A stretch of 64,000 bases of DNA from Candidatus Saccharimonadia bacterium (GTDB taxonomy: Bacteria > Patescibacteriota > Saccharimonadia > UBA4664): assembly GCA_035544015.1 (NCBI GenBank), contig DATKIP010000093.1:345454-409453 (forward strand), in the 5' to 3' direction. Positions 8,861 to 22,656 of the stretch are shown piece after piece. The notes under the pieces were generated by a model. It saw only the letters and a program-made list of their open reading frames with translations. It was not told the origin of the DNA and ran no database searches. The stretch's first letter is position 1. The number at the start of each line of letters is the position of its first letter. Both the position numbers and the translations under genes were made by a program.

Positions 8861-8939
8861 ACGGTCTGCTACAACAGCGCTGAGGCCGGGACGCCTTCGC
8901 ACCTGGGACGGCACCCAACATCGTGCCGTCCCAGGTGTC

Positions 8940-10127: not shown

Positions 10128-10694
10128 GTGTCAGCCATCCAGGCCGGACGCCGCACACCCTGGCGACTTATCGCCCTCGCGGCAGCCGGTGCAGCCCTCC
10201 TTGCGGTTGCCACCCATGGCACTCCCGCCAGCGCACCCCACACCGGATCCGCGGCCAAGCCAAACAGCGTCGCCACTCCCGAGATCACCGGCCACCGCCC
10301 GCCGCCGGCGCCCCAGGCCGCCACAACCACCCCACCCCGCCGCCCCGACCAACGCCTGTTTAGCGTGTCCGTCTGGTGGATCAATGCCCACGACGCAGGC
10401 GTACAGAGCCAAATAAGCGTCGGCGGCAATGCCTATAACGCCCCCATAACCCCGCACCCAGGCCCACACGGCATCGCCTACTTCACCGTCGCAGCCGCCT
10501 TTGAAGAGACGATTGATGTAATCACTAGCCGCACGTCGCGCTACGGCATCGTCGGCACCCTCAACTGCAGCATCACCGATCAGCGCGGCGAGATCATCGA
10601 CCTGCAGTGGGTCGACGACGGACGACAGGGACTAGCCCGGTGTCAAAAGCTGGTAGGCTGGGGCCCCAACCCCAATCGACGCATCAAGGGCTAG
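10128..10694 (+). CDS. small secreted Cys-pair protein, family member A
   Basis: GTG start with RBS gaggaag. Basic N-terminus, hydrophobic helix, P/T/A linker, then a domain with NCSITD...ARCQKL cysteines. Paralogy to the other members supports coding. Confidence 0.5.
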   Translation: MSAIQAGRRTPWRLIALAAAGAALLAVATHGTPASAPHTGSAAKPNSVATPEITGHRPPPAPQAATTTPPRRPDQRLFSVSVWWINAHDAGVQSQISVGGNAYNAPITPHPGPHGIAYFTVAAAFEETIDVITSRTSRYGIVGTLNCSITDQRGEIIDLQWVDDGRQGLARCQKLVGWGPNPNRRIKG

Positions 10695-10747
10695 ACCGGC
10701 ACGGCCGAGATATATTCCGCGAAACCCATCGCCTTCGCCGGAAAAAC

Positions 10748-10783
10748 CACCCAGGACGGCCCACCGCCGAGCCGTCCTGGGTG
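10748..10783 (+). terminator. GC-rich hairpin CCAGGACGGCCCACCGCCG-N-GCCGTCCTGG (terminator-like, family-conserved)
   Basis: Perfect inverted repeat directly after member A. Near-identical copies at 11498 and 19804. Confidence 0.5.
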
Positions 10784-10811
10784 TACCACCTTACAACCAA
10801 AATTATTCCAA

Positions 10812-10862
10812 TACGCTACACTAAACATTGTCTCGGCCCAAGCCGCGTTCTTGCACATCCCA
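10812..10862 (+). promoter_or_regulatory. conserved ~50-bp upstream element (TACACTAAACAttGTCTCGGCCCAAGCCGCGTTCTTGCACATCCCAAGCC), putative promoter/5'UTR of member B
   Basis: Near-identical copy at 11557..11610 upstream of member C. Contains a -10-like TACACT followed by GTCTCGG. Confidence 0.45.
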
Positions 10863-10892
10863 AGCCTCTTGTCGTCGTTAAGGAGAAGCGCA

Positions 10893-11453
10893 ATGGGTGG
10901 CACCCAAACCCCAACTCGCCGCCGAAACAGCGCCGCAGCAGTATTCGTAGTGGGCGCGTTGCTCATCGGCATCGGAGCCCTCACGGGCAACCTCACCCCT
11001 ACGAATCGGCCCAGCCCGCACGCCACACCGTCGGCCGTCATCGACGCCGAGCCAAGACCAAGCTTCCAGCCAGGGCCACGTGACCGCAGAAGCCACCTCT
11101 ACGACCTGGAGGTTTATCGAGTTAACGCTCCGACTGATATCGCCATCACCTACACGATAGGCGCAGTACTGCATCTAGTCTCACCGAGCGATCAGGCCCG
11201 TGAAACCACCGGAAACATCTGGAAACGACGCGTCACCGCCCGCAACGACGAGACGATTCTGCTAAGAGCTGTCCCGGTCACCCGCGGCGCCCACGTGCCC
11301 ACGCACATGCAGTGCAAAATCTGGCTCATCGTGGTGCGCGGAAAAGGCGAGGTACGTGGTTTTGTCGCAGAGGATCCACCACATAAAGCCACGGTAAACG
11401 CCAACCAGTCGGTGAGTTGCTCGACTCCCGTCGCAGGCCCGTACCCCGACTAA
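10893..11453 (+). CDS. small secreted Cys-pair protein, family member B
   Basis: RBS aaggaga then ATG. N-terminus MGGTQTPTRRRNSAAAVFVVGALLIGIG. Close paralog of C (YDLEVYRVNAP, RETTGNIWKRR, QCKIW...SCST). Confidence 0.65.
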   Translation: MGGTQTPTRRRNSAAAVFVVGALLIGIGALTGNLTPTNRPSPHATPSAVIDAEPRPSFQPGPRDRRSHLYDLEVYRVNAPTDIAITYTIGAVLHLVSPSDQARETTGNIWKRRVTARNDETILLRAVPVTRGAHVPTHMQCKIWLIVVRGKGEVRGFVAEDPPHKATVNANQSVSCSTPVAGPYPD

Positions 11454-11497
11454 TCACCGAGACGTCCACGCCGGCGAGGCCAAGCCCCGCCGAAACC

Positions 11498-11533
11498 ACC
11501 CAGGACGGCCCACCGCCGCGCCGTCCTGGGTGG
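11498..11533 (+). terminator. family hairpin CCAGGACGGCCCACCGCCGCGCCGTCCTGG
   Basis: Perfect inverted repeat after member B. Confidence 0.5.
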
Positions 11534-11639
11534 CCCACCCGCACCAAACCGCCGCAATACGTTACACTAAACAATGTCTCGGCCCAAGCCGCGTTCTTGC
11601 ACATCCCAAGCCATTTCTCACCACGAGGAGACCCCACCT

Positions 11640-12140
11640 ATGGGCAACACTCAGACCCCAACACGCCGAAAATTTGGCGGACTACTGCTCACAGCCGGCC
11701 TGTTGCTTGGCGCCGTGGTAATCACCAGCAACCACCCCATCGGTCAGCCTGAACCATCCGCCACCCCGACCGCCGTCATTGATGCCGCCCCCGGCCCGGA
11801 CGACAACCAGGTATACACCTACGACCTCGAGGTTTTGCGCGTTCACGCACCGTCTGGAATTTCCATTTCCTACTCCATCGGCGCCATACCGTACGTGGTC
11901 CCGGCGAAAGCCCAGAAGCGCGAAACCACCGGAAACCTCTGGAAACGACGGATAACGGTCATCAACAACGAACTCGTCGTCTTAACTGCCGCGCCCAATG
12001 CGCGGGGCGCCCATATCCCTACACACTTGCAGTGCCGAATCAAAGCCGTTATGAGCGCCCATGCCACCTTCCCTCTCTCCGAGGATCCGCCAGGTAGAGC
12101 TACCACAAACGCCAGCGAAACGGTGAGTTGTTCGATCTAG
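11640..12140 (+). CDS. small secreted Cys-pair protein, family member C
   Basis: RBS aggag then ATG. N-terminus MGNTQTPTRRKFGGLLLTAGLLLGAVV. Paralog of B (YDLEVLRVHAP, RETTGNLWKRR, QCRIK...SCSI). Confidence 0.65.
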   Translation: MGNTQTPTRRKFGGLLLTAGLLLGAVVITSNHPIGQPEPSATPTAVIDAAPGPDDNQVYTYDLEVLRVHAPSGISISYSIGAIPYVVPAKAQKRETTGNLWKRRITVINNELVVLTAAPNARGAHIPTHLQCRIKAVMSAHATFPLSEDPPGRATTNASETVSCSI

Positions 12141-12161
12141 CAATCGCGACGGCGCCGAGAC

Positions 12162-12195
12162 ACCGCCGGGGATGGCGCAACGACGCCCCATCCCC
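12162..12195 (+). terminator. hairpin CCGGGGATGG-loop-CCATCCCCGG after member C
   Basis: 10-bp perfect stem. Confidence 0.45.
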
Positions 12196-12224
12196 GGCGC
12201 CGAACCCGAACATAAATCCAACAA

Positions 12225-12290
12225 AATAAAGACCCGAGACTCATTCGCGCAGTGGGTGGTCACCGCACGAAAAAGCTCGGGTCTTTATTA
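12225..12290. repeat. long inverted repeat AATAAAGACCCGAG...CTCGGGTCTTTATT (14-bp perfect arms, ~37-nt loop)
   Basis: Seen in sequence. Borders a ~270-bp low-GC island (12290..12560) upstream of dprA. Confidence 0.5.
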
Positions 12291-12503
12291 CACCCTTCAA
12301 CCTCACCTCGGGGGCGTTTTATGCGAAACGCGTATAGCGTAACGGGTGTGAAGGGACTAATCCGCCTGCAGTGAATAGCTAAAGGAGGGTGCATTTAGAT
12401 ATTCTTACAGGCGAATTAGTGGTATGTTGAGGTGGTTCTTGCCTACGCATTGCAGGCATAACTAAGATGCTAACACACTTTACGGATTCTGTCAACAATA
12501 ATT

Positions 12504-13352
12504 ATGCAAATCTCTAACATTTCTCACAACTCAAACTCGTTTCCAGATATACTCAGGCAAATTACCGAACCGCCCAGAAGCATAAACGTTTTAGGAACTT
12601 TGCCCAAAGACTCCATGGTAGCGGTCGTCGGCACGCGCCGGCCCACCGCTTACGGCGAACGCGTCACCTACCAAATAGCAGGGGAGTTGGCCAAGGCCGG
12701 CGCCGTCATCGTGAGCGGCCTAGCGATCGGCGTGGATTCCATCGCTCACCGCGCCGCCCTCGATGCCGGCGGCCGCACCGTGGCCGTACTAGCTCACGGT
12801 CTCGACCGCATCTACCCGCCCCGCCACCGCGGCCTGGCCAAAGAGATTCTCGCCTCCGGCGGTGCGCTGGTTTCTGAGTACGACATTGGCACCCCGGCCC
12901 ACAAACACCACTTCGTGGAGCGCAACCGCCTCATCGCCGGCCTGTGCGCCGCCACCATCGTGACCGAAGCCGCCACCAAAAGCGGCTCGCTCATCACCGC
13001 CCACCGCGCCGCCAAATACAACCGGCTCGTGATGGCCGTGCCCGGCAACATCACCTCCGTCTACTCAGCCGGCCCCAACAATCTGATCCGCACCAATATT
13101 GCCACCCCCATCACTTCCACGGCCGATGCCATCGTAGCGCTGGGCTTCCACGCCCGCGAGGCTGTGCCCGTGTCGGCCCAAAGCCCCGACGAAGCCAAAA
13201 TCCTCGAGCTCCTCGAAGGCGGCGCCAGCAATAGCGAAGACCTCATCGCCGGCGGCAATTTCAGCGCCGCCCAATTTGCCAACATCATCAGCCTCATGGA
13301 AATCACCGGCAAGGTCCGCAACCTCGGCGCCGGACAATGGGTGGTGCGGTAA
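12504..13352 (+). CDS. dprA: DNA processing protein A (DNA-uptake/recombination mediator)
   Basis: DprA Rossmann-like core (VAVVGTRRPTAYGERVT...SGLAIGVDSIAHRAAL...GGRTVAVLAHGLD). Confidence 0.85.
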   Translation: MQISNISHNSNSFPDILRQITEPPRSINVLGTLPKDSMVAVVGTRRPTAYGERVTYQIAGELAKAGAVIVSGLAIGVDSIAHRAALDAGGRTVAVLAHGLDRIYPPRHRGLAKEILASGGALVSEYDIGTPAHKHHFVERNRLIAGLCAATIVTEAATKSGSLITAHRAAKYNRLVMAVPGNITSVYSAGPNNLIRTNIATPITSTADAIVALGFHAREAVPVSAQSPDEAKILELLEGGASNSEDLIAGGNFSAAQFANIISLMEITGKVRNLGAGQWVVR

Positions 13353-13427
13353 GCATTTGGCTGTCCGCTCCCGCATGATTTACACTGGTACCCGTCTCGT
13401 TGTTTCCCGTCCAAGAGAGCAGGATGC

Positions 13428-13988
13428 ATGGCCACCAAGACCACCAGCACGCCCAGCCGAGCGAGAGGGCGGGTCCGCGCCGTCCTACTGTCTTTGATCC
13501 TCCTCGCTGGCGTCATCACGCTGGGTTCGCAAGTCACCATTAGCAAGAATCCCGCCCTGCCCAGCGAGAGCCCGCAGCCGGCCCAAACGACCTGTGTTCC
13601 GCCGCCGGGAGCCAAGACCTGCAAACCCGATCCCAAGCTCTATGTCGTCCTGGTGAAATGGAGCGGCCTCGACGGTAAACCCGAGGGGCCGGACATCAAG
13701 GTCGCGCCCGAACCACTCGTAGCCGACTCCGCCCCGGTCATCGACGCAGGACGCTGGGTAGCCATCACGACGGCCAATCCCACTGCCGCCAGCAAATTTG
13801 CGGTCACGGTCGGAGTGAGCGCGAAGAAGACTCCGCGAAAGATCGAGCAGGCCCAGACCAGCTGCCGTGTTTTTCCATTCACCGGAACCCAAATCACACT
13901 CCGCGCAGCCGAGGCCAGCATCGCCGGAAGTGACCCGATCACCACTGGCACAGGCAGTGATGTAACTCGCTGCCTGGTACCCCGGTAA
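13428..13988 (+). CDS. small secreted four-Cys protein, family member D (D/E/F subfamily)
   Basis: N-terminus basic plus LLSLILLAGVITL. Cys pair TTCVPPPGAKTCKP plus C-terminal SCRVF...RCLVPR. Shares LYVVLVKWSG / VAPEPL / WVAITTANP blocks with E and F. Confidence 0.6.
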   Translation: MATKTTSTPSRARGRVRAVLLSLILLAGVITLGSQVTISKNPALPSESPQPAQTTCVPPPGAKTCKPDPKLYVVLVKWSGLDGKPEGPDIKVAPEPLVADSAPVIDAGRWVAITTANPTAASKFAVTVGVSAKKTPRKIEQAQTSCRVFPFTGTQITLRAAEASIAGSDPITTGTGSDVTRCLVPR

Positions 13989-14011
13989 TCCGCAGGTACG
14001 AGACGCTCTGC

Positions 14012-14042
14012 CCGGAGGAACGGCCACGAACCGTTCCTCCGG
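14012..14042 (+). terminator. family hairpin CCGGAGGAACGGCCACGAACCGTTCCTCCGG
   Basis: Perfect inverted repeat after D, followed by the conserved GGCACCACC. Confidence 0.5.
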
Positions 14043-14155
14043 GGCACCACCAACTATTCGCTAGCCATAAACCAATCCTTGGCACTACAATAATTTCGTC
14101 TCGTGTCGCTCAGGAAAGCTCGTTCACATCCACGACCCAAGGGAGCTCCCACTCC

Positions 14156-14752
14156 ATGCCCAACGAGCAGCAAACACGCGGGATCAGCGCCGCAGGAGCT
14201 GCTGTCTTCGTCATCGGCCTCATCGCCATAGTAGGCCTAGCCGGTAACAACGATTCCGACAGCCGCCCGTCATCCTGTGGCCAGAAGCCAATAACCCATT
14301 CCGGAATTCCCGGAGCCCGCTTCACGAAGTTCGACTGCCTCCCGGGAGCTACCGCGCTCCCGGCTGTCACCCGGGCCCAGCGCGACCAAGAACTATACCT
14401 GGTCCTAGCCGGCTGGAAGGGCACCTCCAACGCCACCATCGGAGTCGTCCCTCCGCCCCTCGCCTCCACGGACTCGCTCTTCCAGGTCAGTGGCAATGAG
14501 GGCCTATGGTTTGGCCTGACCACCGCCAACACCAACCCTGCCATCAAGAATAGTAAGGGGAAGCCGGTGAAAGTCAGGGTGGTCATCCAAGCCAACCTCA
14601 GGGTAGGCAGCCGTTTGACCTGCGCCATCTATCGCATAACGAACTTCGACACACCCGGAAATGTTGCCAGTCAACACCGGCTGGAGCACAAAGAGTTCCA
14701 CCCCGACCGGCCTCTACGCAACCCGACCTTGGAATGCAGCATTCCCCTCTAG
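14156..14752 (+). CDS. small secreted four-Cys protein, family member E
   Basis: RBS aagggag. LYLVLAGWKG, VVPPPL, WFGLTTANT blocks. Cysteines SSCG...FDCLPG and TCAIYRITN...ECSIPL. Confidence 0.6.
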   Translation: MPNEQQTRGISAAGAAVFVIGLIAIVGLAGNNDSDSRPSSCGQKPITHSGIPGARFTKFDCLPGATALPAVTRAQRDQELYLVLAGWKGTSNATIGVVPPPLASTDSLFQVSGNEGLWFGLTTANTNPAIKNSKGKPVKVRVVIQANLRVGSRLTCAIYRITNFDTPGNVASQHRLEHKEFHPDRPLRNPTLECSIPL

Positions 14753-14779
14753 CACCAGCGGCACGAGACACCCGCACCA

Positions 14780-14814
14780 CCCGAGAACGGCGCCCTCCAG
14801 CGTCGTTCTCGGGG
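14780..14814 (+). terminator. family hairpin CCCGAGAACGGCGCC...CGTCGTTCTCGGGG
   Basis: Inverted repeat after E. 3' flank conserved with the F copy. Confidence 0.5.
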
Positions 14815-14860
14815 CACCACCCACCTAGGCGCTCCTTCACCCCAATCGGAAGGATCCATC

Positions 14861-15502
14861 GTGTCGAGAAGCCGAACAGCAGCGAAAGCACGCCTTCTTG
14901 TGATGGCGCTGATCGGAGCCAGTCTGGTCATCGGCACCACCCAAGTTGGCCGGATGCTTCCCGGCAGCAATGCGGACGCCTGCCCCGTCGCCACCCCCAA
15001 TCCCGCCGACAGCGGCGTGGTGGTAGTCGGAGCCAACGACTGCATCCCCCGGATGCCGCCAGTCCCCAAATCCATCAGAGACCGAGAGCTCTTCGTGGTC
15101 GTGGCTGGCTGGAGCAATCTCTTCGGGGTTCCCTACGAGACCGGCGTCAGCATCAATGTATCGCCGCCACCGCTCGGAATGACCGAACGCACCATTCGCC
15201 TGCCGCAACCTACAGGACACTGGTACGGCGTCACCATCGGCGCCCAACCCGGCGACATACCAGATTTCAAAGACAACAACTACCGGGTCCTCATGGGAGT
15301 GGGGGCTTCAGACGCCACCCACAAACACCACCCCAACTCCGGCCTGGCCTGCGGCATCTATCGCCTCACCACACCCGATGCACCCGAAAACAGCATCGTG
15401 CGAGCAAATTTTCTCAGCGGAGAAATCTCCACTCCCGCAGAAGAGGCCCCCCCCGATTATTCATTGCCGGTATCCCAACCGCAAGTAACGCCAGCGGCCT
15501 GA
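14861..15502 (+). CDS. small secreted four-Cys protein, family member F
   Basis: RBS ggaagga. LFVVVAGWSN, VSPPPL, WYGVTIGAQ blocks. Cysteines ADACP...NDCIP and ACGIYRLTT. Confidence 0.6.
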   Translation: MSRSRTAAKARLLVMALIGASLVIGTTQVGRMLPGSNADACPVATPNPADSGVVVVGANDCIPRMPPVPKSIRDRELFVVVAGWSNLFGVPYETGVSINVSPPPLGMTERTIRLPQPTGHWYGVTIGAQPGDIPDFKDNNYRVLMGVGASDATHKHHPNSGLACGIYRLTTPDAPENSIVRANFLSGEISTPAEEAPPDYSLPVSQPQVTPAA

Positions 15503-15521
15503 GCACGAGACGCCCGCACCA

Positions 15522-15558
15522 CCCGGGAACGGCGCCACACAGCGGTGCCGTTCCCGGG
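15522..15558 (+). terminator. family hairpin CCCGGGAACGGCGCC...GGTGCCGTTCCCGGG
   Basis: Inverted repeat after F. Confidence 0.5.
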
Positions 15559-15602
15559 GCACCACCGCTTGAACCCGCGCCCATACCTGCTACAATATCA
15601 AA

Positions 15603-16559
15603 ATGAAGTTTTGGCAACAGCTACCGCAGCCGTTCTTTGTGCTAGCCCCCATGGACGACGTCACCGACGTGGTTTTTCGGCAGCTCATAGCCGAAATCGC
15701 GCCACCAGACGTCTTCATGACCGAATTCGTCTCGGTGGACGGCCTCCAATCAGCCGGCCGCACCGTCACGCTCGAACGCCTGCGCATCGCCCCCGGCAGC
15801 GCCAGCAACCTCGTGGCCCAAATCTGGGGCAACGACCCCGAGCGCTTCTACCGTTCCGCCCAAGACATCGCCGCGCTGGGCTTCGCCGGCATCGACATCA
15901 ACATGGGCTGCCCCGAGAAGGGGATTGTAGCCCGCGGCTGCGGTGGCGGCCTCATCGGCCACCCCGACGCCGCGGCCGACATCATCGCCGCCACCAAGGC
16001 CGGCGCGCCCCATCTGCCCGTCAGCGTCAAGACTCGCCTCGGCCTCGGCCAACCCATCACCGAAGACTGGGCTGGCTTCCTGCTCGGCCAAGACCTTGCC
16101 GCCCTCACCATCCACGGCCGGACCGTGCGCGAAATGAGCAAAGTCCCGGCGCACTGGGACGAAATCGCCAAAGTAGTGCGCCTACGCAACCAACTGGCCG
16201 TGCCCACCAAGATCATCGGCAACGGCGACATCGAAAGCCGCGCCCACGGCCTGCAATTGGCCTCAGACACCGGCGTCGACGGCCTCATGATCGGCCGTGG
16301 CATCTTCCACGACCCCTTCATCTTCGACCCCGCCCAGGCCACCGCTGACCCCCAAAAACGCCTCGCCATCCTCCTCCGCCACGTCGAGCTCTACGAGCAG
16401 TGGGGGAGTACCAAGTCGTTCCAAACCCTGAAGAAATTCTTCAAAATCTATGCCAACTCCTGGCCCGGCGCCGCCGAACTGCGCGCCGAACTCATGGAGA
16501 CTTCCATGCCAGCGCAGACACGAGGCATTATTGCCGCACATTTAGGAAAAATCCAGTAG
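15603..16559 (+). CDS. dus: tRNA-dihydrouridine synthase
   Basis: Dus/TIM-barrel motifs FVLAPMDDVTDVVFR and GIDINMGCPEK. Confidence 0.85.
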   Translation: MKFWQQLPQPFFVLAPMDDVTDVVFRQLIAEIAPPDVFMTEFVSVDGLQSAGRTVTLERLRIAPGSASNLVAQIWGNDPERFYRSAQDIAALGFAGIDINMGCPEKGIVARGCGGGLIGHPDAAADIIAATKAGAPHLPVSVKTRLGLGQPITEDWAGFLLGQDLAALTIHGRTVREMSKVPAHWDEIAKVVRLRNQLAVPTKIIGNGDIESRAHGLQLASDTGVDGLMIGRGIFHDPFIFDPAQATADPQKRLAILLRHVELYEQWGSTKSFQTLKKFFKIYANSWPGAAELRAELMETSMPAQTRGIIAAHLGKIQ

Positions 16560-16580
16560 AATAATTCACGTCTCGTACAG
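16548..16580 (+). promoter_or_regulatory. putative promoter of member G (TAGAATAAT -10-like box followed by CACGTCTCGTACA); overlaps the last codons of dus
   Basis: Motif shared with the upstream regions of H, E and N. Confidence 0.4.
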
Positions 16581-16628
16581 CCTGAGACGTCCTTCCCATC
16601 CCAACGGTTGCCCCAGGAGGCAAACAAA

Positions 16629-17213
16629 ATGAGCCGCACCGCCCAGCGCGGAGTGATTGCCCGGATCGGTGGCCTCTTGTTCACAGTCGTGGCGCTCTTA
16701 GCCGGCACTGTAGCGATCATGAGCTCGACCGGCACCAAGACCTGCAAGTCCGCACCGGCCCCCGCTCCAGCCGTCCAGTTGGCAGCCCAAACCGCCGCGG
16801 CCCCCGAGAGCACCCGGTACGTCTTCTTGGCCCAATGGACTCGCTTCCAGCCCAACGAAGTCAACATTCTCTACACCGACTACCTGGAAGATGGCCACCC
16901 GCGCAAGCAGATCGTCCTCGACACTGACAAGGGCCCCAGCAGCTGGAAGACCGTGATCACCGCGCCAAACGGCAGCAAGCCCACGCTCGAGATCACGCCG
17001 CCCCCCTGGGCCTGCAACGATGTCCATGGGCTCACCAAAGGCGCCTCTGTGAGCTGTGTCGTTTACCTGGTCAGCACCAGCAAGCCGGAAGACAGCATGA
17101 TCCCGTCCAACGTCCAGGCCCGTGCCACCAACACGACCGGACAAAGCGCAATTTGCAAGGACTTCACCGCCGGGAAGCGGAAGCACGCCTCAGAACTCGA
17201 TCCCGAGCACTAG
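16629..17213 (+). CDS. small secreted Cys-containing protein, family member G
   Basis: RBS aggagg, spacer 8 nt, ATG. MSRTAQRGVIARIGGLLFTVVALLAG...TGTKTCKSAP. C-terminal WACND...SCVVYLVS...ICKDF. Confidence 0.6.
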   Translation: MSRTAQRGVIARIGGLLFTVVALLAGTVAIMSSTGTKTCKSAPAPAPAVQLAAQTAAAPESTRYVFLAQWTRFQPNEVNILYTDYLEDGHPRKQIVLDTDKGPSSWKTVITAPNGSKPTLEITPPPWACNDVHGLTKGASVSCVVYLVSTSKPEDSMIPSNVQARATNTTGQSAICKDFTAGKRKHASELDPEH

Positions 17214-17261
17214 CCGGGCACCGCGTACATCCGAGACTGTCCCGCCGAGGCACAGCACCCC

Positions 17262-17300
17262 GGCACGGGGGCCGCAATGGCGCAAAACAGCGCCATCGCG
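17262..17300 (+). terminator. hairpin GGCCGCAATGGCGC-loop-GCGCCATCGCGGCC after member G
   Basis: Near-perfect 14-bp inverted repeat. Sibling copy at 18508. Confidence 0.5.
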
Positions 17301-17407
17301 GCCCCCCGCACCATCGTCCCAACCCCAGCACCCGTCCGTCGCTCTAGCAGCCCTTTCACAACCACGGCCACGCAAAGCCCCATCAGCCACCCAGCGAGCG
17401 TCAGATC

Positions 17408-17725
17408 GTGCTCCGATTGGCCTGGCGGCAAGCCCCCGACGGCGTCACCATCCGCTACCGGATCGGCCACCAGCGCGAAATCACCATAACCGACGGCCGG
17501 CACGAACACGAAGGGCTTGAGTTTCCCGTCCCCGCCGAAATCGGCGACGAGATCAAGCTTTCTATCACGCCGGTCTTCGAAAACGAATTCACCCCCACGA
17601 ACGTGCGCTGCTTCATCTACCAGATCAAGTTCGGCCGACGCATCGAGGGGCACGTGGATCCGCCACACGGCTATACCCCCGACGCGCTTGAATCTGCCCA
17701 CTGCAAGTGGGTAGTCACGCCCTAG
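17408..17725 (+). pseudogene. N-terminally truncated remnant of the small Cys-pair family (domain only, no anchor or signal)
   Basis: Carries the family C-terminal hallmarks (RCFIYQIKF...HCKWVVTP). The upstream region is occupied by the G hairpin. A P/T/A linker-like stretch is present in another frame (17277 ORF), implying frameshift or deletion decay. Confidence 0.35.
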
Positions 17726-17823
17726 CCGGTTCGGGGACGGCGGCATCACCGTCGTCCCCGAACCCCCAAATCTATTGAAATCCGCGCCGTCCCGAGGCCA
17801 AACCTCAAAAACCCTTTTAAGCA

Positions 17824-17858
17824 AAAATCCAGTAGAATAATTCACGTCTCGTACAACG
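17824..17858 (+). promoter_or_regulatory. putative promoter of member H (TAGAATAAT...CACGTCTCGTACA), part of a ~130-bp duplicated block
   Basis: Near-identical to 16548..16580 including AAAAATCCAGTAG, which is the terminal KIQ-stop of dus at the G locus. Confidence 0.4.
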
Positions 17859-17903
17859 TGAGGCTTCTTTCCATCCCAACTTTTGCCCCAGGAGGCAGAC
17901 AAC

Positions 17904-18461
17904 ATGACTCGCACCGCCCGGCGCGGAGTGATTGCTCGGATCGGTGGCCCCGTGGTCACGGTCTCAATACTAGCGATCGGAGCCATAGTGATCGCCAACT
18001 CAACCGGCACCAAGACCTGCAAGTCCGCACCGGGCCCCGCTACTCCGGCCACCACCAAGCCCGCATCGGCCTCCAGCGACTGCTCCACCCCACCCGGCTC
18101 CCAGACCACCGCTCTTCGGCATGTCCACACGTACTACGGCACCTCCACAAAAACCGGCTACGCTATGGGCGCCCAGTACCAAGTCGGGCCGATTAGCGGC
18201 AATATACTCCCGTTCTCTCGCGGCAAGCGCGAAGCCAGCTGGACCGGCCTACTCACCGCCTTCGAAGGCGACCCACTCACAATCGACATCACCGGGGTCG
18301 GCGACGCTAACCCGACAGCCAAAGTCGCGTGCGCCTTCTACCGCATCACCGACCCGGCCAATCTCAGGGCCAACGCCGTACCTGCCAACCTCGTCGGAGT
18401 ACCCCAGTCCGGCACGGGCCCAAAGGGCCACGCCCACTGCGAAATAATCTCCGGCGAGTAG
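17904..18461 (+). CDS. small secreted four-Cys protein, family member H
   Basis: RBS ggagg then ATG. MTRTARRGVIARIGGPVVTV...TGTKTCKSAP (N-terminus near-identical to G). CST...ACAFYRITD...HCEIISGE. Confidence 0.6.
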   Translation: MTRTARRGVIARIGGPVVTVSILAIGAIVIANSTGTKTCKSAPGPATPATTKPASASSDCSTPPGSQTTALRHVHTYYGTSTKTGYAMGAQYQVGPISGNILPFSRGKREASWTGLLTAFEGDPLTIDITGVGDANPTAKVACAFYRITDPANLRANAVPANLVGVPQSGTGPKGHAHCEIISGE

Positions 18462-18507
18462 TCCCTCACGCCACCCGAGACACCCCGCCGAGGCACAACG
18501 CCCCGGC

Positions 18508-18545
18508 GCAGAGGCCGCAATGGCGCAGCGTTGCGCCATTGCGGC
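18508..18545 (+). terminator. hairpin GGCCGCAATGGCGCAGCGTTGCGCCATTGCGGCC after member H
   Basis: Perfect 15-bp palindrome. Confidence 0.55.
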
Positions 18546-18652
18546 CCACCCGCACCCTGCATTGATATTAAAAATCCGACATTATGCCGTAAAATTAAGT
18601 CGTCTCGCGTCCAGCCCCGCAGCACCCCACAATCCACCACCGGAGGACTTCT

Positions 18653-19135
18653 GTGCTCACTCGTACCCCCACCAGGCCTCGATCAGGCAAGAGATCCAAG
18701 GCCGTGTGGGCGATTATTGCCATAGGGCTCCTGATCCTCGGACTCCAAGCCCTCTCCGCACCCAGCAATCGATCCGCACCCCACAGCGGCGCCACCCCTA
18801 CCACTACCCAAACCGCCGAAGTCATCGAACTCGGCGGCAACTGGAACAGCGTAGATGGTGACGTCAAGATCACCATCACCACCAACGGCCATGCGATCCC
18901 CTTGCCAGAAACCTTCCCCGGCAACCTCTACGACTGGAACCAACCACACGTGGTCGCTCCAGGCGACGAGGTGGTACTCAACATCAGGCCGGTCAACCCG
19001 CAAGACAAGCACTATACGATGTATTGCAAAATCTTCGGTCCGAACGGAATCCCGGTCGACGAACAGCCCGGCATCCACGACGACCATATCAACGACGGGG
19101 TCACCTGCTACTACCCGTTGCGGCCCAAGCCCTAG
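18653..19135 (+). CDS. small secreted Cys-pair protein, family member I
   Basis: RBS ggagga then GTG. Basic N-terminus plus AVWAIIAIGLLILGL. YCKIFGPNG...TCYYPL. Confidence 0.55.
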   Translation: MLTRTPTRPRSGKRSKAVWAIIAIGLLILGLQALSAPSNRSAPHSGATPTTTQTAEVIELGGNWNSVDGDVKITITTNGHAIPLPETFPGNLYDWNQPHVVAPGDEVVLNIRPVNPQDKHYTMYCKIFGPNGIPVDEQPGIHDDHINDGVTCYYPLRPKP

Positions 19136-19162
19136 CTGCCTTCACGAGGCGTGAGACGCCGG

Positions 19163-19197
19163 CCCCAGGATGGCACACCGAAGTGTCATCTTGGGGC
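19163..19197 (+). terminator. hairpin CCCCAGGATGG-loop-TCATCTTGGGG after member I (G-U containing stem as RNA)
   Basis: Seen in sequence. Confidence 0.35.
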
Positions 19198-19243
19198 ACG
19201 CCAGCATGAAACCCTCCACCCTTGATGCCCGAGGAGAACATCC

Positions 19244-19774
19244 GTGCGTACCACCGCTCAGCGCGCCCCCAGTAGGCTGCGCCAAACGCTGCTTGTCATC
19301 CTTGCCGGCGCGCTAGCGATCGGCATCGGAACCAACTTGCCAACCAGCCAATCCGCCACACCCCCAGCCGCACGACCCACCCGGCACCTCTCGGTCGTGC
19401 CGCAGCCCACAGTCAGCACCGAGCCCAGTGCCATCACGAGCGCACCGGTCGCCACGGGGCCCGAAGAGCGATGGTTCCATCTGCAAGGCCACTGGGACCT
19501 GCCGGCCAAGCCCGGCAAACCCCACGTTCGGGTTGTCATTACCGTCATCGTCTTGGGCTCCGCTCCCGACCCAACCCCCTCCGAGGACCCCTTCGGTAAC
19601 TTCGATAGTTGGGTATCCACCCCGGGCCCCGGCGTAATGCTTCGCATTGCCCCCAAAACGCCCGAGCCCCGCACCCCAAAGATGAGCTGCAGCATCCATG
19701 ACGAACATGACCTGCCCATCGGCATCGTCTACCCGGTGGATCGCACGGGCGGAGCGTTGTGCGTGGCCCGGTAA
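19244..19774 (+). CDS. small secreted Cys-pair protein, family member J
   Basis: RBS gaggag then GTG. RLRQTLLVILAGALAIGIG. Long P/T/A linker. SCSIHDEHD...LCVAR. Confidence 0.55.
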   Translation: MRTTAQRAPSRLRQTLLVILAGALAIGIGTNLPTSQSATPPAARPTRHLSVVPQPTVSTEPSAITSAPVATGPEERWFHLQGHWDLPAKPGKPHVRVVITVIVLGSAPDPTPSEDPFGNFDSWVSTPGPGVMLRIAPKTPEPRTPKMSCSIHDEHDLPIGIVYPVDRTGGALCVAR

Positions 19775-19803
19775 ATCGAGCTGAGCTCCACGAGGCACCA
19801 TAG

Positions 19804-19835
19804 CCCAGGACGGCCCACCGCCGGGCCGTCCTGGG
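19804..19835 (+). terminator. family hairpin CCAGGACGGCCCACCGCCGGGCCGTCCTGG
   Basis: Third copy of the A/B-type hairpin. Confidence 0.5.
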
Positions 19836-19897
19836 CTCTTGCCCAACCCGCTCCACGCTTGCATCCTCCACCTCCACCAGATACGGTAGGGAATACC

Positions 19898-20053
19898 ATG
19901 AAGAAAGCTGTCGTACTCATAATCGGCGTTCTGGTATATCTTTGGTTTCTCCAAGCAGCCCAAGACGTGGCCGCCAGCCAGCTCACCGAGCTCCAATACT
20001 TATACACAAGCTCAGGCGCTCAAGCCGCCGCCATTTCAAATCCCAACAGATAG
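19898..20053 (+). CDS. 51-aa small hydrophobic/secreted peptide (MKKAVVLIIGVLVYLWFLQAAQDVAAS...)
   Basis: RBS gggaa then ATG. Signal- or TM-like N-terminus. Codon usage is markedly lower GC3 than neighbouring genes. Followed by an AT-rich region carrying TGGTATAAT. Confidence 0.3.
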   Translation: MKKAVVLIIGVLVYLWFLQAAQDVAASQLTELQYLYTSSGAQAAAISNPNR

Positions 20054-20107
20054 CTCATCTACCCACCACTATTTCGTCAAAACACGCAGGGTAAATTTAT
20101 TATGCTC

Positions 20108-20120
20108 GTGGTATAATCAG
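20108..20120 (+). promoter_or_regulatory. extended -10 promoter TGGTATAAT upstream of member K (followed by CGGCTCGTAC)
   Basis: Consensus TGnTATAAT seen in sequence. Confidence 0.4.
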
Positions 20121-20273
20121 CCACTTTCGGCTCGTACAAATCTAGCGTCATCCCCAAGTTAATGGCCCTGCAACCACAATTATTGGCGTGTCAAAACCAC
20201 AGAGTTCCGATACAATGGTTCCCGGCTTGCGTGGCAAGCCCCGTCCCATACCCACCGCAGGAGGGATTGTGCA

Positions 20274-20771
20274 GTGGTTTTGACCGGGCAACGTCCATCA
20301 ACCCGACGACGAGGCATGCGCAGCGTAGTCACGACCGTGCTCATCGTTGCAGCCGTTCTGTGGGGACTGCCTAGGCTCAACCCCGACACGCAGACCTGCT
20401 CCGCCGTGGCACAAACCAGCTCCCAACCTCAAGGCGACTGCTCCACCGGACCCAAAATCCGATTCCGGCTCTCGTGGTCCGAAGCACCCGAAGGCCTGGT
20501 CGTCGAGTACTACGCCGACGGCCACGGCCTGGGCCCAACGCACCCCGACACTGCATACGACGAATGGGACGTCACGCTGCCGGGAACCGTCGGGTTCATT
20601 AGCCTCAGCGCCCCCAGAGGCTCCTACATCGGCTTCTTGAAGTGCCGGCTTTCAAACCCCGACACCAACGAGCAATACGACGCCGCCGAGTACTTCCCCG
20701 TGGATGGACCCCTACAGCAGCTGCCGAGCGGAAAATGGGGCATTGAATGCCACACGCCGGGCATAGCCTAA
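20274..20771 (+). CDS. small secreted four-Cys protein, family member K
   Basis: RBS ggaggg then GTG. VVTTVLIVAAVLWGL. TQTCS...GDCSTG and KCRLSNPDT...ECHTPG. Confidence 0.55.
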   Translation: MVLTGQRPSTRRRGMRSVVTTVLIVAAVLWGLPRLNPDTQTCSAVAQTSSQPQGDCSTGPKIRFRLSWSEAPEGLVVEYYADGHGLGPTHPDTAYDEWDVTLPGTVGFISLSAPRGSYIGFLKCRLSNPDTNEQYDAAEYFPVDGPLQQLPSGKWGIECHTPGIA

Positions 20772-20901
20772 CACCGGGTGAACCTCCATTCGCCTGATCA
20801 CTCCGGGATGGCCCAATGTCGCGCTATCCCGGAAGGTCCTAGAATTATCATTCTCATCTGCGCTAAAATCATGTGGTCCGCTGTTCGCCCGTCGAAAGGT
20901 A

Positions 20902-21399
20902 GTGTTCGTGACAACCACCCAGCGGCACCGGCCAAAAGCCCGGGGTAGCGGCAGGGTACTCCTGGCGATAGCCGGCCTCATCGCTGCCGTTATTGTCATC
21001 CCGTTCCCAGCCAAAACCCACCCCAACCCCGTCACTACGCCATCGGTAACCCCAGCCGGTCCCCGGGCAGTCGAATTCAAATTCGACGCCACCCTCACCG
21101 GACTGGCCCATACCGAGATCGAAACCGAGGTTGGTGGAGCCGCACAGCCGCATCCCAATATCATCACTCCCACCTGGGAGACCACTCGGCCAGGCACCGA
21201 GTACCAGTCGGCCGAGATGACGATCACGCCCCGGGAAACCACCAACCGGTCGCGCGTAACCGGCGTCAGAACCATCTGCCAAATCTTCGTGCGCATCCTC
21301 CCGAACGGCGCGTTCGAAGGCCAGGCCTACGTGCCCGGGTTTAGTGTGAATGAACAGATCACGTGCCGAGCACATCCACCCTACGCGCTAACCGGGTAG
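20902..21399 (+). CDS. small secreted Cys-pair protein, family member L
   Basis: GTG start (20902 or 20908), RBS gaaagg. VLLAIAGLIAAVIVI. ICQIFVRIL...TCRAHPP. Only 6 bp upstream of M (operon). Confidence 0.55.
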   Translation: MFVTTTQRHRPKARGSGRVLLAIAGLIAAVIVIPFPAKTHPNPVTTPSVTPAGPRAVEFKFDATLTGLAHTEIETEVGGAAQPHPNIITPTWETTRPGTEYQSAEMTITPRETTNRSRVTGVRTICQIFVRILPNGAFEGQAYVPGFSVNEQITCRAHPPYALTG

Positions 21400-21405
21400 G
21401 GCATC

Positions 21406-21933
21406 ATGCTCCGCACCCGCAGTCGCATCGCACCCGCAGTCCTCGCGCTCGCTGCTCTTGCTAGCTTTGCTTGGTTGGCCGCCGTGCCACATCCGCCGGC
21501 CAACCATGATGCCACCATCGTCATCTACTACCCAACCCCAGCCCAGGCCGACGCCGTACCGGCACCCCGACCGCCGACCACGATCGACGACGATCACGTC
21601 CGCTACTGGGCGGTGATCGAATGGGAGCGTTCTGCCGGCGTATCAATCGCCTACCTGATCGGACCAGTAGCGCCAGCCCCCACTACCGACAAACGGCCGG
21701 ATGGGGTCGAAAAAATTCTCATTACGGCACCTCGCGACAGCCTCATTCAGGTACATGTAGTGCCTCACCGGCTGCCTCGTGGAAACAGCTACGCCAGCCA
21801 ATGCGCCGTGTATCTCGTCACCCAGCTCGCACCGCTGGAAGACAACGAAAAGATACCGAACATGCGGGCCCACGACGTCACCACCCCCGGCAAAACCGGC
21901 ATCACCTGCACGCTCACAGCCACCGGCGTGTAG
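21406..21933 (+). CDS. small secreted Cys-pair protein, family member M
   Basis: ATG start. APAVLALAALASFAWLAAV. QCAVYLVT...TCTLTATGV. Confidence 0.55.
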   Translation: MLRTRSRIAPAVLALAALASFAWLAAVPHPPANHDATIVIYYPTPAQADAVPAPRPPTTIDDDHVRYWAVIEWERSAGVSIAYLIGPVAPAPTTDKRPDGVEKILITAPRDSLIQVHVVPHRLPRGNSYASQCAVYLVTQLAPLEDNEKIPNMRAHDVTTPGKTGITCTLTATGV

Positions 21934-21951
21934 CAATTGCCCGCCTCACAC

Positions 21952-21985
21952 CCCCAAGACGGCCCACTGTCGTGCCGTCTTGGGG
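21952..21985 (+). terminator. family hairpin CCCCAAGACGGCCCACTGTCGTGCCGTCTTGGGG
   Basis: Perfect inverted repeat. Sibling at 22552. Confidence 0.5.
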
Positions 21986-22069
21986 CCCTCCATCGCACTA
22001 ATACCACCACATGCGTTACAATAATCGGCGTCTCGTAAACCCAACCCGACCCGCAAAGGATGGCGCAAC

Positions 22070-22531
22070 GTGATCACCGGAACGAGAAGGAGGGGCCGGC
22101 TCCTCCTCGTCGTCCTAGCAGTCATCGGCCTCCTAGCCGGTGTAGCCGAGGGAATGGGGGCCTTCAGCCAGCAACGCACCCTCGTGCTCGTTGCCCAATG
22201 GACCAATACCCCAGGGGGCGTAGAGATCGATGCCGCAGCCAATGGCATTAAGCTGGACCCGACAGATCCCAGCTACACCACCGGTACCCCCCTCGACGCC
22301 GCTACAGGCTTCCGCAGGATCACCGTAACGGCCGCTTTCGCCCACATCATTGTCGGTAACGTCATACCCGCAATACGAATCGATAGCAGGGTCCGCTGCG
22401 CCGTCTTCGACCCCCAGATCAAAGCGCCACTTTTTTCAGATACTGTCACCGGACGAACCGGTGCCCAGGCTACCTGCTACTACAACGAGACGGTACGGCC
22501 AACACCGGCACCACCCACACCGACGAGATAA
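22070..22531 (+). CDS. small secreted Cys-pair protein, family member N
   Basis: GTG start. RRRGRLLLVVLAVIGLLAGVAEG. RCAVFDPQI...TCYYNETV. Upstream TACAATAAT...CGTCTCGTAA motif at 22013..22036. Confidence 0.55.
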   Translation: MITGTRRRGRLLLVVLAVIGLLAGVAEGMGAFSQQRTLVLVAQWTNTPGGVEIDAAANGIKLDPTDPSYTTGTPLDAATGFRRITVTAAFAHIIVGNVIPAIRIDSRVRCAVFDPQIKAPLFSDTVTGRTGAQATCYYNETVRPTPAPPTPTR

Positions 22532-22551
22532 CTCGCCGGCCACAACCACCC

Positions 22552-22583
22552 CCAAGACGGCCCACTGCGGCGCCGTCTTGGGC
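22552..22583 (+). terminator. family hairpin CCCAAGACGGCCCACTGCGGCGCCGTCTTGGG
   Basis: Perfect inverted repeat after N. Confidence 0.5.
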
Positions 22584-22656
22584 TCACCCCGCTCGCATAC
22601 AAAAAGACCCCGCCGCACCGAAGCGCTTGGGGGTCTTTTTGATCAGCCGGTAGCAA

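Follow-up and report, generated by a model that had tools for sequence, protein, structure and literature searches.

An orphan surface-protein family in a Candidatus Saccharimonadia genome, carried on duplicated cassettes with predicted pairing of mRNA ends

A 64 kb stretch of DNA (the window) from a metagenome-assembled genome (MAG) of Candidatus Saccharimonadia, in the candidate phyla radiation, holds an orphan gene family that has expanded in this lineage to 15 paralogs. The products are small proteins, each anchored in the membrane and carrying a beta-sandwich domain. In our best reading, to which we give a probability of roughly 0.55, these genes are autonomous, duplicated expression cassettes whose mRNAs would have both ends sequestered by predicted pairing. 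The analysis is wholly computational, and transcription starts and 3′ ends are inferred positions. A preliminary description of this DNA had reported a promoter-like box and subfamily-specific hairpins, and both are borne out (nine boxes, hairpins after 13 of 15 members, three classes). Two parts of its interpretation also stand, namely cassette duplication and the view that the hairpins are not the main terminators; REP-like dispersal is not supported, an operator role has become less likely, and neither of these two readings is favoured.

The family and its duplicated flanks

Paralog A has an N-terminal basic stretch and one transmembrane (TM) helix, followed by a P/T-rich linker and a beta-sandwich domain with a Cys pair, and its sole relatives are the window's own paralogs. 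The C-terminal domain of paralog E is a beta-sandwich in an AlphaFold2 model (pLDDT 87.7). The family is found nowhere else among 1.8 billion representative proteins, no homologous cassettes were found in other genomes, and pairwise protein identity among the paralogs is only ~15–25%, with most coding DNA at ~50%.

The only non-family genes inside the cluster are dprA, dus and a 51-aa ORF. The backbone of housekeeping genes is conserved, and family copies sit in four of its intergenic regions; relatives lack family genes at all four syntenic sites. In relatives whose dus is 65–80% identical, dprA and dus are direct neighbours and family genes are missing nearby, so the copies fill four separate gaps in this backbone. 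The flanks of B/C, G/H and E/F are 80–98% identical, whereas the coding bodies fall to ~50%; between G and H, the N-terminal part and flanks are ~80–90% identical and the ectodomain ~50%. Flanks have thus been retained while ectodomain-coding parts diverged to near-random similarity. The last 13 nt of dus (aaaaatccagtag) recur ahead of the H promoter. Together, the shared flanks, this copied dus end and the relatives without family genes support the earlier proposal that whole cassettes were duplicated with their flanks.

Table 1 Coordinates of family genes and associated elements in the window.
Feature	Position	Strand	Details
Paralog A	10128..10694	+	188 aa
Paralog B	10893..11453	+
Paralog C	11640..12140	+	closest to B
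Paralog D	13428..13988	+
Paralog E	14156..14752	+
Paralog F	14861..15502	+	no own promoter box; behind E's hairpin
Paralog G	16629..17213	+
Gx	17408..17725	+	5′-truncated paralog remnant; no TM segment, no promoter box
Paralog H	17904..18461	+
Paralog I	18653..19135	+
Paralog J	19244..19774	+	no promoter box; behind I's hairpin
Paralog K	20316..20771	+	doubtful distant box; no strong hairpin
Paralog L	20902..21399	+	degenerate box TAAAAT-N6-GTCCGC
Paralog M	21406..21933	+	no promoter box
Paralog N	22070..22531	+
A promoter	10072..10089	+	TAAAAT, N6, GTCTCA; predicted +1 at 10084
B promoter	10817..10836	+	TACACT, N7, GTCTCGG; predicted +1 at 10830
C promoter	11563..11582	+	TACACT, N7, GTCTCGG; predicted +1 at 11576
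D promoter	13381..13400	+	TACACT, N7, GTCTCGT; predicted +1 at 13394
E promoter	14086..14104	+	TACAAT, N6, GTCTCGT; predicted +1 at 14098
G promoter	16557..16576	+	TAGAAT, N7, GTCTCGT; predicted +1 at 16570
H promoter	17833..17852	+	TAGAAT, N7, GTCTCGT; predicted +1 at 17846
I promoter	18590..18608	+	TAAAAT, N6, GTCTCGC; predicted +1 at 18602
N promoter	22017..22036	+	TACAAT, N7, GTCTCGT; predicted +1 at 22030
Leaderless dus start	15591..15605	+	TACAAT, N6, ATG; anchor for transcription start
A 3′ box	10705..10711	+	ccGAGAT (GAGAU in RNA); 5 bp incl. one G-U pair
B 3′ box	11457..11463	+	CCGAGAC; 7 bp
C 3′ box	12154..12161	+	GCCGAGAC; 8 bp
D 3′ box	13998..14004	+	ACGAGAC; 7 bp, or 8 with position -1
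E 3′ box	14757..14769	+	AGCGGCACGAGAC; 13 bp incl. one G-U pair
F 3′ box	15503..15511	+	GCACGAGAC; 9 bp with 5′ end of E
G 3′ box	17232..17237	+	CGAGAC; 6 bp
H 3′ box	18476..18481	+	CGAGAC; 6 bp
I 3′ box	19148..19157	+	GGCGTGAGAC; 10 bp incl. two G-U pairs
N 3′ box	22485..22492	+	ACGAGACG; 7 bp, or 8 with position -1
Hairpin after A	10748..10783	+	class 1
Hairpin after B	11496..11533	+	class 1
Hairpin after C	12164..12199	+	unique sequence
Hairpin after D	14009..14046	+	class 2, then GGCACCACC (14043)
Hairpin after E	14780..14813	+	class 2, then GGCACCACC (14813)
Hairpin after F	15522..15558	+	class 2, then GGCACCACC (15558)
Hairpin after G	17267..17306	+	class 3, one A-C mismatch
Hairpin after Gx	17728..17764	+	unique sequence
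Hairpin after H	18513..18546	+	class 3
Hairpin after I	19163..19196	+	unique sequence
Hairpin after J	19802..19837	+	class 1
Hairpin after M	21952..21985	+	class 1 variant (AAG/CTT); G-C to A-U, compensated
Hairpin after N	22551..22582	+	class 1 variant (AAG/CTT)
Canonical A-tract/U-tract terminator	12225..12289		ends A-B-C run
Canonical bidirectional A/U-tract terminator	22600..22641		ends G-to-N run

Promoter boxes and the predicted transcription start

The motif TA[N3]T-N5-8-GTCTC occurs nine times on the + strand of the 64 kb window and never on the - strand, and each copy immediately precedes a family gene (A, B, C, D, E, G, H, I and N); chance would give ~1.1 (dinucleotide shuffles: mean 1.1, maximum 6). 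A stricter form (GTCTCG, N6-7) is observed eight times, compared with 0.18 expected. Of the eight box-bearing members listed in the preliminary description, the quoted strings are present for B, C, D, E, G, H and N; A and I had been overlooked, and K is doubtful, because its box is degenerate (TATAAT at 20112–20117, an 11-nt spacer, GGCTCG) and lies 140–180 nt ahead of the start of K. The box is absent for F, J, Gx and M, the last of which starts 6 nt after the stop of L. The -10 box of G overlaps the dus stop codon.

The transcription start was placed by reference to dus, which looks leaderless: a -10-type box (mostly TGnTAyAAT) lies six nt ahead of its ATG in 9 of 10 relatives. TACAAT, TACACT and TATAAT -10 types likewise sit 6–8 nt before the ATG in leaderless dus, xseA, ftsE and topA. 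Since the leaderless arrangement places the start ~7 nt past the -10 box, the family mRNAs would begin at the G of GUCUCG.

Predicted pairing of the mRNA ends

A second box, (C)GAGAC, the reverse complement of the GUCUCG box, follows the stop codon and precedes the hairpin in B, C, D, E, F, G, H and I, where ~0.3 occurrences are expected from the rate of GAGAC in the window (35 per 64 kb). This 3′ box went unnoticed in the preliminary description and is new here. In N, it lies inside the ORF, ~40 nt ahead of the stop (within the last 45 nt), and an alternative, ACGAGAT, is found at 22523–22529; in K and L-M, the boxes are absent. Several 3′ boxes fall within the footprint of a terminating ribosome, a point that, like the missing boxes of K and L-M, speaks against end pairing. 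Judged from their distribution, the boxes belong to the gene and not to the spacer, because the run-opening genes A, D and G have the 5′ box with no GAGAC upstream, and the run-closing genes C and F have the 3′ box with no GTCTC following.

The bases predicted to open each mRNA match its post-stop box, which suggests that the two mRNA ends pair, in predicted 5′-end/3′-UTR helices of 5–13 bp. The box of F was scored against the 5′ end of E, which carries the promoter of the E-F unit. The helix lengths of E (13 bp) and I (10 bp) are each reached by 0 of 554 background windows, while the 5–7 bp helices of A, G, H, B and D do not stand out one by one, being matched by 5–30% of background windows. 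When full-length transcripts were folded with RNAfold, nt 1–5 or more paired with the 3′ box in all nine, with predicted pair probabilities of 0.87–1.0, whereas random 5′ 9-mers gave the same pairing in only 19 of 126 folds. Sliding the register lowers the share of paired cells from 82% to 20–55%. Loop closure over ~650 nt on a translated mRNA may nevertheless be kinetically unfavourable.

Helix position 7 varies among U-A, G-C and C-G pairs, and cognate extensions are longer than non-cognate ones (permuted partners, P=0.026; 0.039 with one representative per subfamily). A column shuffle is only suggestive, with 37 of 500 shuffles reaching the observed covariation score; the invariant 5-bp core carries zero covariation information, and the cassette instances are not independent because the paralogs share ancestry. 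These modest statistics, the descent of all copies from one family and the near-identical subfamily flanks could also mean that the shared flanks are passive leftovers of recent duplication or gene conversion with no function of their own, the complementarity being accidental and inherited from one ancestral cassette. We regard this as improbable: the boxes are kept despite the low protein and coding-DNA identity, and both are retained in at least four deep subfamilies amid otherwise unrelated UTR sequence. Moreover, the distance of the 3′ box from the stop varies (4–19 nt, and inside the ORF in N), the helices of E and I were extended independently, and the hairpin stems carry compensatory changes.

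We also considered the suggested operator role, in which a shared transcription factor would bind GTCTCG on the DNA, as a full site or a half-site, and co-regulate the family, with the downstream GAGAC as a second half-site (looping) or incidental. The box itself is conserved next to a variable discriminator, which separates it from the -10; it overlaps the predicted +1, a typical repressor position; and G and H have an inverted partner at 9-nt spacing (CGTCTC-N9-GAGACG and GTCTC-N9-GAGGC). This local partner downstream of the 5′ box could instead form an alternative 5′ hairpin in place of the long-range helix. A nearby partner exists only in G and H, however, and elsewhere lies 550–700 bp off, past the stop codon. 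The G-U pairs inside the helices of E and I and in the core of A allow pairing in sense RNA only, and the corresponding G-T ‘pairs’ in A, E, I and J are mismatches in a DNA palindrome. The extensions are gene-specific, and the cluster contains no regulator gene; a sigma-70-region-4/HARE-HTH protein is encoded at 58295–59329, >35 kb away. With the box at the predicted +1 and its reverse complement after the same genes' stop codon, 5′/3′ mRNA pairing fits better than a protein-binding site, and we consider the operator unlikely.

Hairpins and known systems

The stable GC inverted repeats (-24.7 to -38.8 kcal/mol) sit 15–55 nt past the stop codons, with no strong hairpin after K or L. Their class memberships are as first described, except that not every repeat is perfect (G is not) and that C, Gx and I have unique sequences. 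A U-tract, first noted as missing from several hairpins, follows none of them. U-tract-less terminators have been described in Actinobacteria. The hairpins might accordingly be genuine factor-independent terminators of the U-tract-less (‘I-shaped’) type reported for high-GC bacteria, with every gene strictly monocistronic, a reading in keeping with very stable stems close behind stop codons and a C-rich + strand of 60% GC. It is possible but doubtful. Because no TAnnnT box lies between the preceding hairpin and the start in F, J and Gx, these genes need read-through; F, without a promoter box and behind E's hairpin, is probably co-transcribed with E. Classical A/U-tract terminators come after the last hairpin of each run (Table 1), and a further one is found in the same genome at 34129–34159. 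As promoter-less genes lie behind hairpins and canonical terminators end the runs, the hairpins are probably leaky 3′ barriers and unlikely to be the main terminators, in agreement with the initial suggestion that several may not be classic ones.

REP/BIME extragenic palindromes and other 3′ stem–loops stabilise upstream mRNA, for example in E. coli malE-malF, and REPs are scattered across whole genomes, with hundreds of copies. Here too, GC-rich palindromes without U-tracts follow stops or lie between co-directional genes, and both types probably block 3′ exonucleases. Unlike REPs, the hairpins are confined, within the 73 kb examined, to a 12.5 kb cluster and fall into several unrelated sequence classes. 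The suggestion that they are REP-like was not supported, as neither the rest of the window nor 9 kb of extra flank (73 kb total) contains further copies of the class sequences, and the 58 metagenome matches to the class-1 arm include no hairpin.

Insertion at four intergenic sites that are empty in relatives, and a class-1 hairpin that is identical after A, B and J although their proteins are barely alignable, would be accounted for if GTCTCG...CGAGAC and the hairpins were DNA mobility sites, either recombination or transposition ends or integron-, MITE- or REP-like elements. We find this very unlikely. Pfam scans of the window's larger ORFs revealed no integrase, transposase or RAYT (REP-associated tyrosine transposase), gene calls for the extra 9 kb include no such enzyme, and no copies lie beyond the cluster (73 kb). 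Promoter and hairpin were copied as well, although they sit beyond the 5′ and the 3′ repeat, respectively; the G-U-type ‘pairs’ are strand-specific; and the G-to-H copy took dus coding sequence along, like ordinary segmental duplication. Integron gene cassettes are likewise small single-gene units, each followed by an inverted repeat, in a head-to-tail array, but the family cluster has no intI, its repeats are 30–40 nt near-perfect palindromes without attC core sites, most of its cassettes have their own promoter, and housekeeping genes are interspersed among the copies.

Conserved expression flanks are also seen in multigene families of variable surface proteins, such as the Mycoplasma variable lipoprotein genes. 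Both families consist of tandem paralogs for membrane-anchored surface proteins, which keep the promoter, 5′ region and signal-anchor region while their exposed domains differ strongly. They share no sequence or Pfam relationship, and no phase-variation device (homopolymer tract, invertible promoter or recombinase) was seen here.

For the predicted pairing, the closest comparisons are single mRNAs. In Bacillus subtilis, hbs mRNA forms a 14 bp 5′-UTR/3′-UTR helix upstream of a terminator hairpin, which protects against RNase attack (Braun, Durand and Condon 2017, PMC5737220) and is not kept in orthologs of close species (PMC7821165). The predicted helices here are intramolecular and of comparable size (5–13 bp), but would recur across a paralog family, in nine transcription units, unlike the single-gene hbs case, and would use the very first transcript nucleotides. 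Short intramolecular 5′/3′ pairing also occurs in Staphylococcus aureus RNAIII, whose 7-bp helix indicates that helices this short can exist, and in icaR mRNA, where the 3′ UTR pairs with the ribosome-binding site, masks the Shine-Dalgarno and triggers RNase III cleavage (reviewed in PMC7821165). The icaR interaction is repressive, whereas the Shine-Dalgarno lies outside the family helix and the role proposed here is protective.

In our model, most copies would act as autonomous cassettes that open with a sigma-70-type -10 box, with transcription starting at or beside the G of the conserved GUCUCG. A 45–65 nt leader with a Shine-Dalgarno sequence would precede the ORF, followed by the 3′ box (N)CGAGAC and, at the cassette end, the very stable GC hairpin. 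As a leaky barrier or processing stop, the hairpin would allow read-through into promoter-less F, J and Gx, leaving canonical terminators to finish the runs. The extreme 5′ end would pair with the 3′ box, the reverse complement of the mRNA's first bases, and the hairpin would cap the 3′ side, so that both mRNA ends may be shielded from end-dependent RNases.

Promoter box and predicted transcription start

The window has nine + strand copies of the motif TA[N3]T-N5-8-GTCTC and none on the - strand, against a shuffle mean of 1.1, and all nine matches lie immediately upstream of members of the small-protein paralog family (A-E, G-I and N). A stricter version of the promoter motif is found eight times in the window, with 0.18 expected. 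The preliminary description had placed this box upstream of eight family members; the strings it quoted are correct, while A and I were overlooked and for K the match is degenerate and lies far from the gene. No promoter box precedes F, J, Gx or M. The -10 hexamers upstream of the paralogs are nine TAnAnT boxes, as in a sigma-70-type promoter. In a consensus scan only A, E and I reach 9/12, with a weak -35, and the family boxes lack the extended -10 TGn that is present at dus.

In four other genes of the window, dus, xseA, ftsE and topA, the ATG follows a TAnAnT box by 6-8 nt (see table) and the genes appear to be leaderless; 9 of 10 relatives have a -10-type box, mostly TGnTAyAAT, 6 nt before the dus ATG. 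In leaderless genes +1 is nucleotide seven or eight counted from the end of the -10 box, which for the paralogs would place +1 on the G of GTCTCG or on the base just upstream. With that placement, the first six nucleotides of the paralog mRNA would be the conserved box. The discriminator between the -10 box and GTCTCG is not conserved among the paralogs. Across the window, the + strand count of GTCTC falls slightly short of that in shuffles (46 vs 62.6 +/- 7.3), and outside the paralog flanks the pentamer is scarcer than composition predicts.

Complementarity of the predicted mRNA ends

In B, C, D, E, F, G, H and I, the reverse complement of GTCTC, GAGAC, stands 4-19 nt past the stop codon and ahead of the hairpin; at the window rate of 35 per 64 kb, chance predicts about 0.3 for these short stretches. 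The corresponding 3′ box is GAGAT in A and CGAGGC in J, and in N it is ACGAGACG, located 40 nt upstream of the stop codon. In folds of naked RNA at equilibrium (RNAfold), the first 5-9 nt pair with the 3′ box in nine of nine full-length predicted transcripts, with pair probabilities of 0.87-1.0. When the first 9 nt were swapped for random 9-mers from the window, such pairing arose in 19 of 126 folds.

Aligned in register, 82% of cells pair, versus 20-55% in slid registers and 25% in a wrong register used as a negative control. Permuting the 3′ partners gave P=0.026, or P=0.039 with one representative per subfamily, for instances that all come from one genome and, being paralogous, are not independent. 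Helix position 7 contains three pair types, and a column-shuffle control (37/500) is suggestive only. G-U pairs inside the E and I helices and the A core would be functional in sense RNA only. Complementarity of the 5′ UTR to the 3′ UTR within the same transcript is above chance, a result that depends on the inferred transcription start.

Predicted end pairing and coordinates of features in and near the paralog cluster (window positions unless stated)
Feature	Position	5′ end or sequence	3′ box or arm	Remarks
B, C		GUCUCGG	CCGAGAC	helix 7-8 bp
D, N		GUCUCGU	ACGAGAC	helix 7-8 bp
E		GUCUCGUGUCGCU	AGCGGCACGAGAC	helix 13 bp
E 5′ end with F 3′ box		GUCUCGUGU	GCACGAGAC	helix 9 bp
I		GUCUCGCGUC	GGCGUGAGAC	helix 10 bp
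G, 5′ box with local partner	16569-16589	CGTCTC	GAGACG	9-nt spacer, gtacagcct
H, 5′ box with local partner	17845-17864	GTCTCgtacaacgtGAGGC		9-nt spacer
dus box	15591-15605	TGCTACAAT		dus starts 6 nt downstream
topA, apparent leaderless start	28440-28458			TAnAnT box before ATG
ftsE, apparent leaderless start	35435-35456			TAnAnT box before ATG
xseA, apparent leaderless start	46054-46070			TAnAnT box before ATG
U-tract terminator	12225-12289			canonical; ends A-C run
U-tract terminator	22600-22641			canonical; ends G-N run
Gx remnant	17214-17725			truncated at 5′ end
Gx hairpin	17728-17764			16 bp
Small single-TM ORF	19899-20053	MKKAVVLIIGVLVYLW...		51 aa, inside cluster; in closest relative (L002) at 12807-12961
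Non-family GC hairpin	8900-8937	CACCTGGGACGGCAC	GTGCCGTCCCAGGTG	no U-tract; between convergent genes; resembles class 1
Non-family GC hairpin	46002-46034	CGGGCCCTCGTCTC	GAGACGAGGGCCCG	no U-tract; loop acgcc; immediately before xseA promoter; includes GTCTC/GAGAC as local palindrome
Second repeat	825-900	CCCAGTAC(A/G)TAT..AACGGAATCCGAGGAA	TTCCTCGGATTCCGTT	~33-nt loop; upstream of histidine-kinase gene (1041)
Second repeat	35310-35393	as at 825-900	as at 825-900	between release-factor gene and ftsE
Sigma-70 region 4 + HARE-HTH gene	58295-59329			precedes 947-aa protein gene
947-aa protein	59360-62203			TrwB/VirD4-like coupling-protein and HerA-like ATPase domains
Ku and multidomain LigD	148-3899 of L140 (locus extending left of window)			non-homologous end joining; ~5-9 kb left of window

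The same boxes could bound a MITE-like intergenic element of the form CGAGAC...GTCTCG. A, D and G, the first genes of their runs, have a 5′ box with no GAGAC upstream, and C, E, F and I have a 3′ box with no GTCTC following, C and F closing their runs. Predicted helices formed within the gene are, for B, C, E and I, at least as long as those formed with a neighbour. The boxes therefore accompany the gene and not the spacer, which argues against such an element. A role of GTCTC/GAGAC as Type IIS restriction sites (BsmBI/BsmAI-like) on either side of the genes would leave the gene-specific extensions unexplained, and no restriction-modification gene was seen. The earlier suggestion that CGTCTCG is a shared operator is weaker than pairing of the RNA ends. 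For G and H, a 5′-terminal hairpin or operator-like palindrome is a possible alternative, judged from the local partners of their 5′ boxes.

We tentatively propose, at a probability of about 0.4, that this whole CPR paralog family has a modular 'closed-end' mRNA. The first 6-13 nt of every transcript would pair with a box lying after the stop codon and before a GC hairpin that does not terminate transcription; this box would co-evolve gene by gene, and the resulting panhandle would be carried along with its gene in a portable expression cassette.

Downstream hairpins and duplication of cassettes

Thirteen paralogs are followed by a GC-rich stem-loop (-24.7 to -38.8 kcal/mol) of the kind found in intrinsic terminators; none of the 13 has a U-tract 3′ of the stem, and a terminator scan detected none on the + strand. 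The preliminary description had noted the missing U-tract for several hairpins and had sorted them into three sequence classes (A, B and J with variant M and N; D, E and F; G and H), and both points stand. Its description of the repeats as perfect fails for the G hairpin, which has one mismatch, and the hairpins of C, Gx and I are unique in sequence. The stems of class 1 and those of class 2 contain compensatory changes. A, B and J share an identical class-1 hairpin despite barely alignable proteins, possibly through sequence-specific selection or conversion. No TAnnnT box separates the starts of F, J and Gx from the hairpin preceding each, so these genes must be reached by read-through. On this reasoning the hairpins would be barriers rather than terminators, with extra classical A/U-tract terminators ending the A-C and G-N runs.

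REP-like or BIME-like dispersal, raised earlier for the hairpin classes, is not supported within the DNA examined. Class sequences have no copies outside 10.7-22.6 kb, either in the remaining window sequence or in a further 9 kb of left flank, which yielded no elements, and no RAYT transposase was found among the larger window ORFs (Pfam). A search of metagenome contigs with the class-1 arm returned 58 matches, none with the 3′ arm and thus all chance matches, from a collection that evidently lacks the source genome. Rfam returned nothing in the paralog cluster at gathering and permissive thresholds. An integron cassette array was likewise rejected: such arrays have an adjacent intI tyrosine recombinase with attI and Pc, and there is no recombinase among the larger window ORFs (Pfam); attC sites are imperfect repeats of 57-141 bp with R''/R' GTTRRRY cores, whereas the repeats here are near-perfect palindromes of 30-40 nt with no GTTRRRY. 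More generally, Pfam scans of the larger ORFs found no integrase or transposase in the window.

Two GC hairpins lie outside the family (see table). A second, unrelated repeat forms a hairpin of 16-21 bp at two intergenic sites (four arm matches vs 0.09 expected); possible identities are a structured RNA and a small mobile repeat.

Duplication of whole cassettes, also claimed previously, is sound. In B/C, G/H and E/F the promoter, leader and 3′ flanks are 80-98% identical, as is the signal-anchor region of G/H, and the ectodomain-coding parts are near random at ~50% identity. The first 13 nt of the H cassette come from the 3′ end of dus, so G was copied together with its upstream flank by segmental duplication. 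Gx is a family remnant in which a stop codon breaks the linker region upstream; it lacks a TM segment as well as the promoter and 3′ boxes, and retains its own hairpin.

Genome setting and an orphan protein family

The window belongs to a metagenome-assembled genome annotated as Candidatus Saccharimonadia (CPR / Patescibacteria; locus tags VMT30_083xx-084xx). Its GC content of 60% is unusually high among Saccharimonadia, nearly all genes are on the + strand, and this strand is strongly C- and A-rich, with a very strong asymmetry across the whole window (GC skew ~-0.2, AT skew ~+0.15). Ku and LigD, encoded to the left of the window, are probably uncommon in a small CPR genome. A Logan contig, L001, matches the window at 100% identity and thus offers no allelic variation to exploit.

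We compared 80 dus-anchored loci fetched from other genomes. Among the closest relatives, whose dus is 65-80% identical, most have dus starting 20-90 nt after dprA, and the backbone of the closest, L002, runs MTase(-), dprA, dus, ..., a 50-aa TM ORF, followed by an Apf-like gene(-) and then a Clp ATPase. The paralogs fill four gaps in this backbone: A-C ahead of dprA, D-F in the dprA-dus interval, G to J downstream of dus, and K to N past the small TM ORF, whose retention in L002 makes it an ancestral backbone gene and not a family member. No family member was detectable in the 80 loci with the family HMM, and the promoter-motif matches there are chance ones located inside genes.

The 15 paralogous ORFs (105-213 aa, within 10.1-22.5 kb) share a layout in which a basic N-terminus precedes a single hydrophobic helix, then a Pro/Thr-rich linker and a domain of ~110 aa where one cysteine is invariant and another nearly so. 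The E domain is confidently modelled as a beta-sandwich (AlphaFold2, pLDDT 87.7, pTM 0.80), and Foldseek found no PDB match to the model at E<=0.001 (best E 0.029). A first guess that the proteins are MmpS-like gained no support from Pfam, which matched none of the 10 paralogs scanned (A-J). When 1.84 billion representative proteins were searched exhaustively with a profile, the matches at E<=1e-10 were 14 window paralogs and one 1,121-aa repeat protein; J alone among the paralogs fell short, and weaker matches were Ig-like repeat proteins. A word-indexed search with the family alignment gave self matches only. By the profile search, the family is an orphan confined to this locus.

Pairing between bacterial 5′ and 3′ UTRs is known for only a handful of single genes (hbs, RNAIII, icaR), and its generality is unsettled (PMC7821165). 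In hbs, a 14-bp helix between the UTRs shields the mRNA from RNase Y (PMC5737220); RNAIII has a 7-bp 5′/3′ helix, and icaR is a further precedent (PMC7821165). These are single genes, whereas the pairing predicted for the paralog cassettes would be family-wide, would involve the transcript's very first nucleotides, and would be a new variant of this type. If true, it would be the first family-wide, evolutionarily maintained 5′-end/3′-UTR panhandle in bacterial mRNAs. Nine transcription units with end pairing, each with gene-specific extensions, would then form a natural variant set for how end pairing and a 3′ hairpin set mRNA lifetime. It would also give a first glimpse of post-transcriptional control in Saccharimonadia, for which, to our knowledge, almost nothing is known of promoters, terminators or RNA decay. 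With conserved flanks and signal-anchor regions set against near-random ectodomains, inside a housekeeping backbone intact in relatives, this orphan surface-protein family is a candidate for host interaction or antigenic diversification in an epibiotic lineage.
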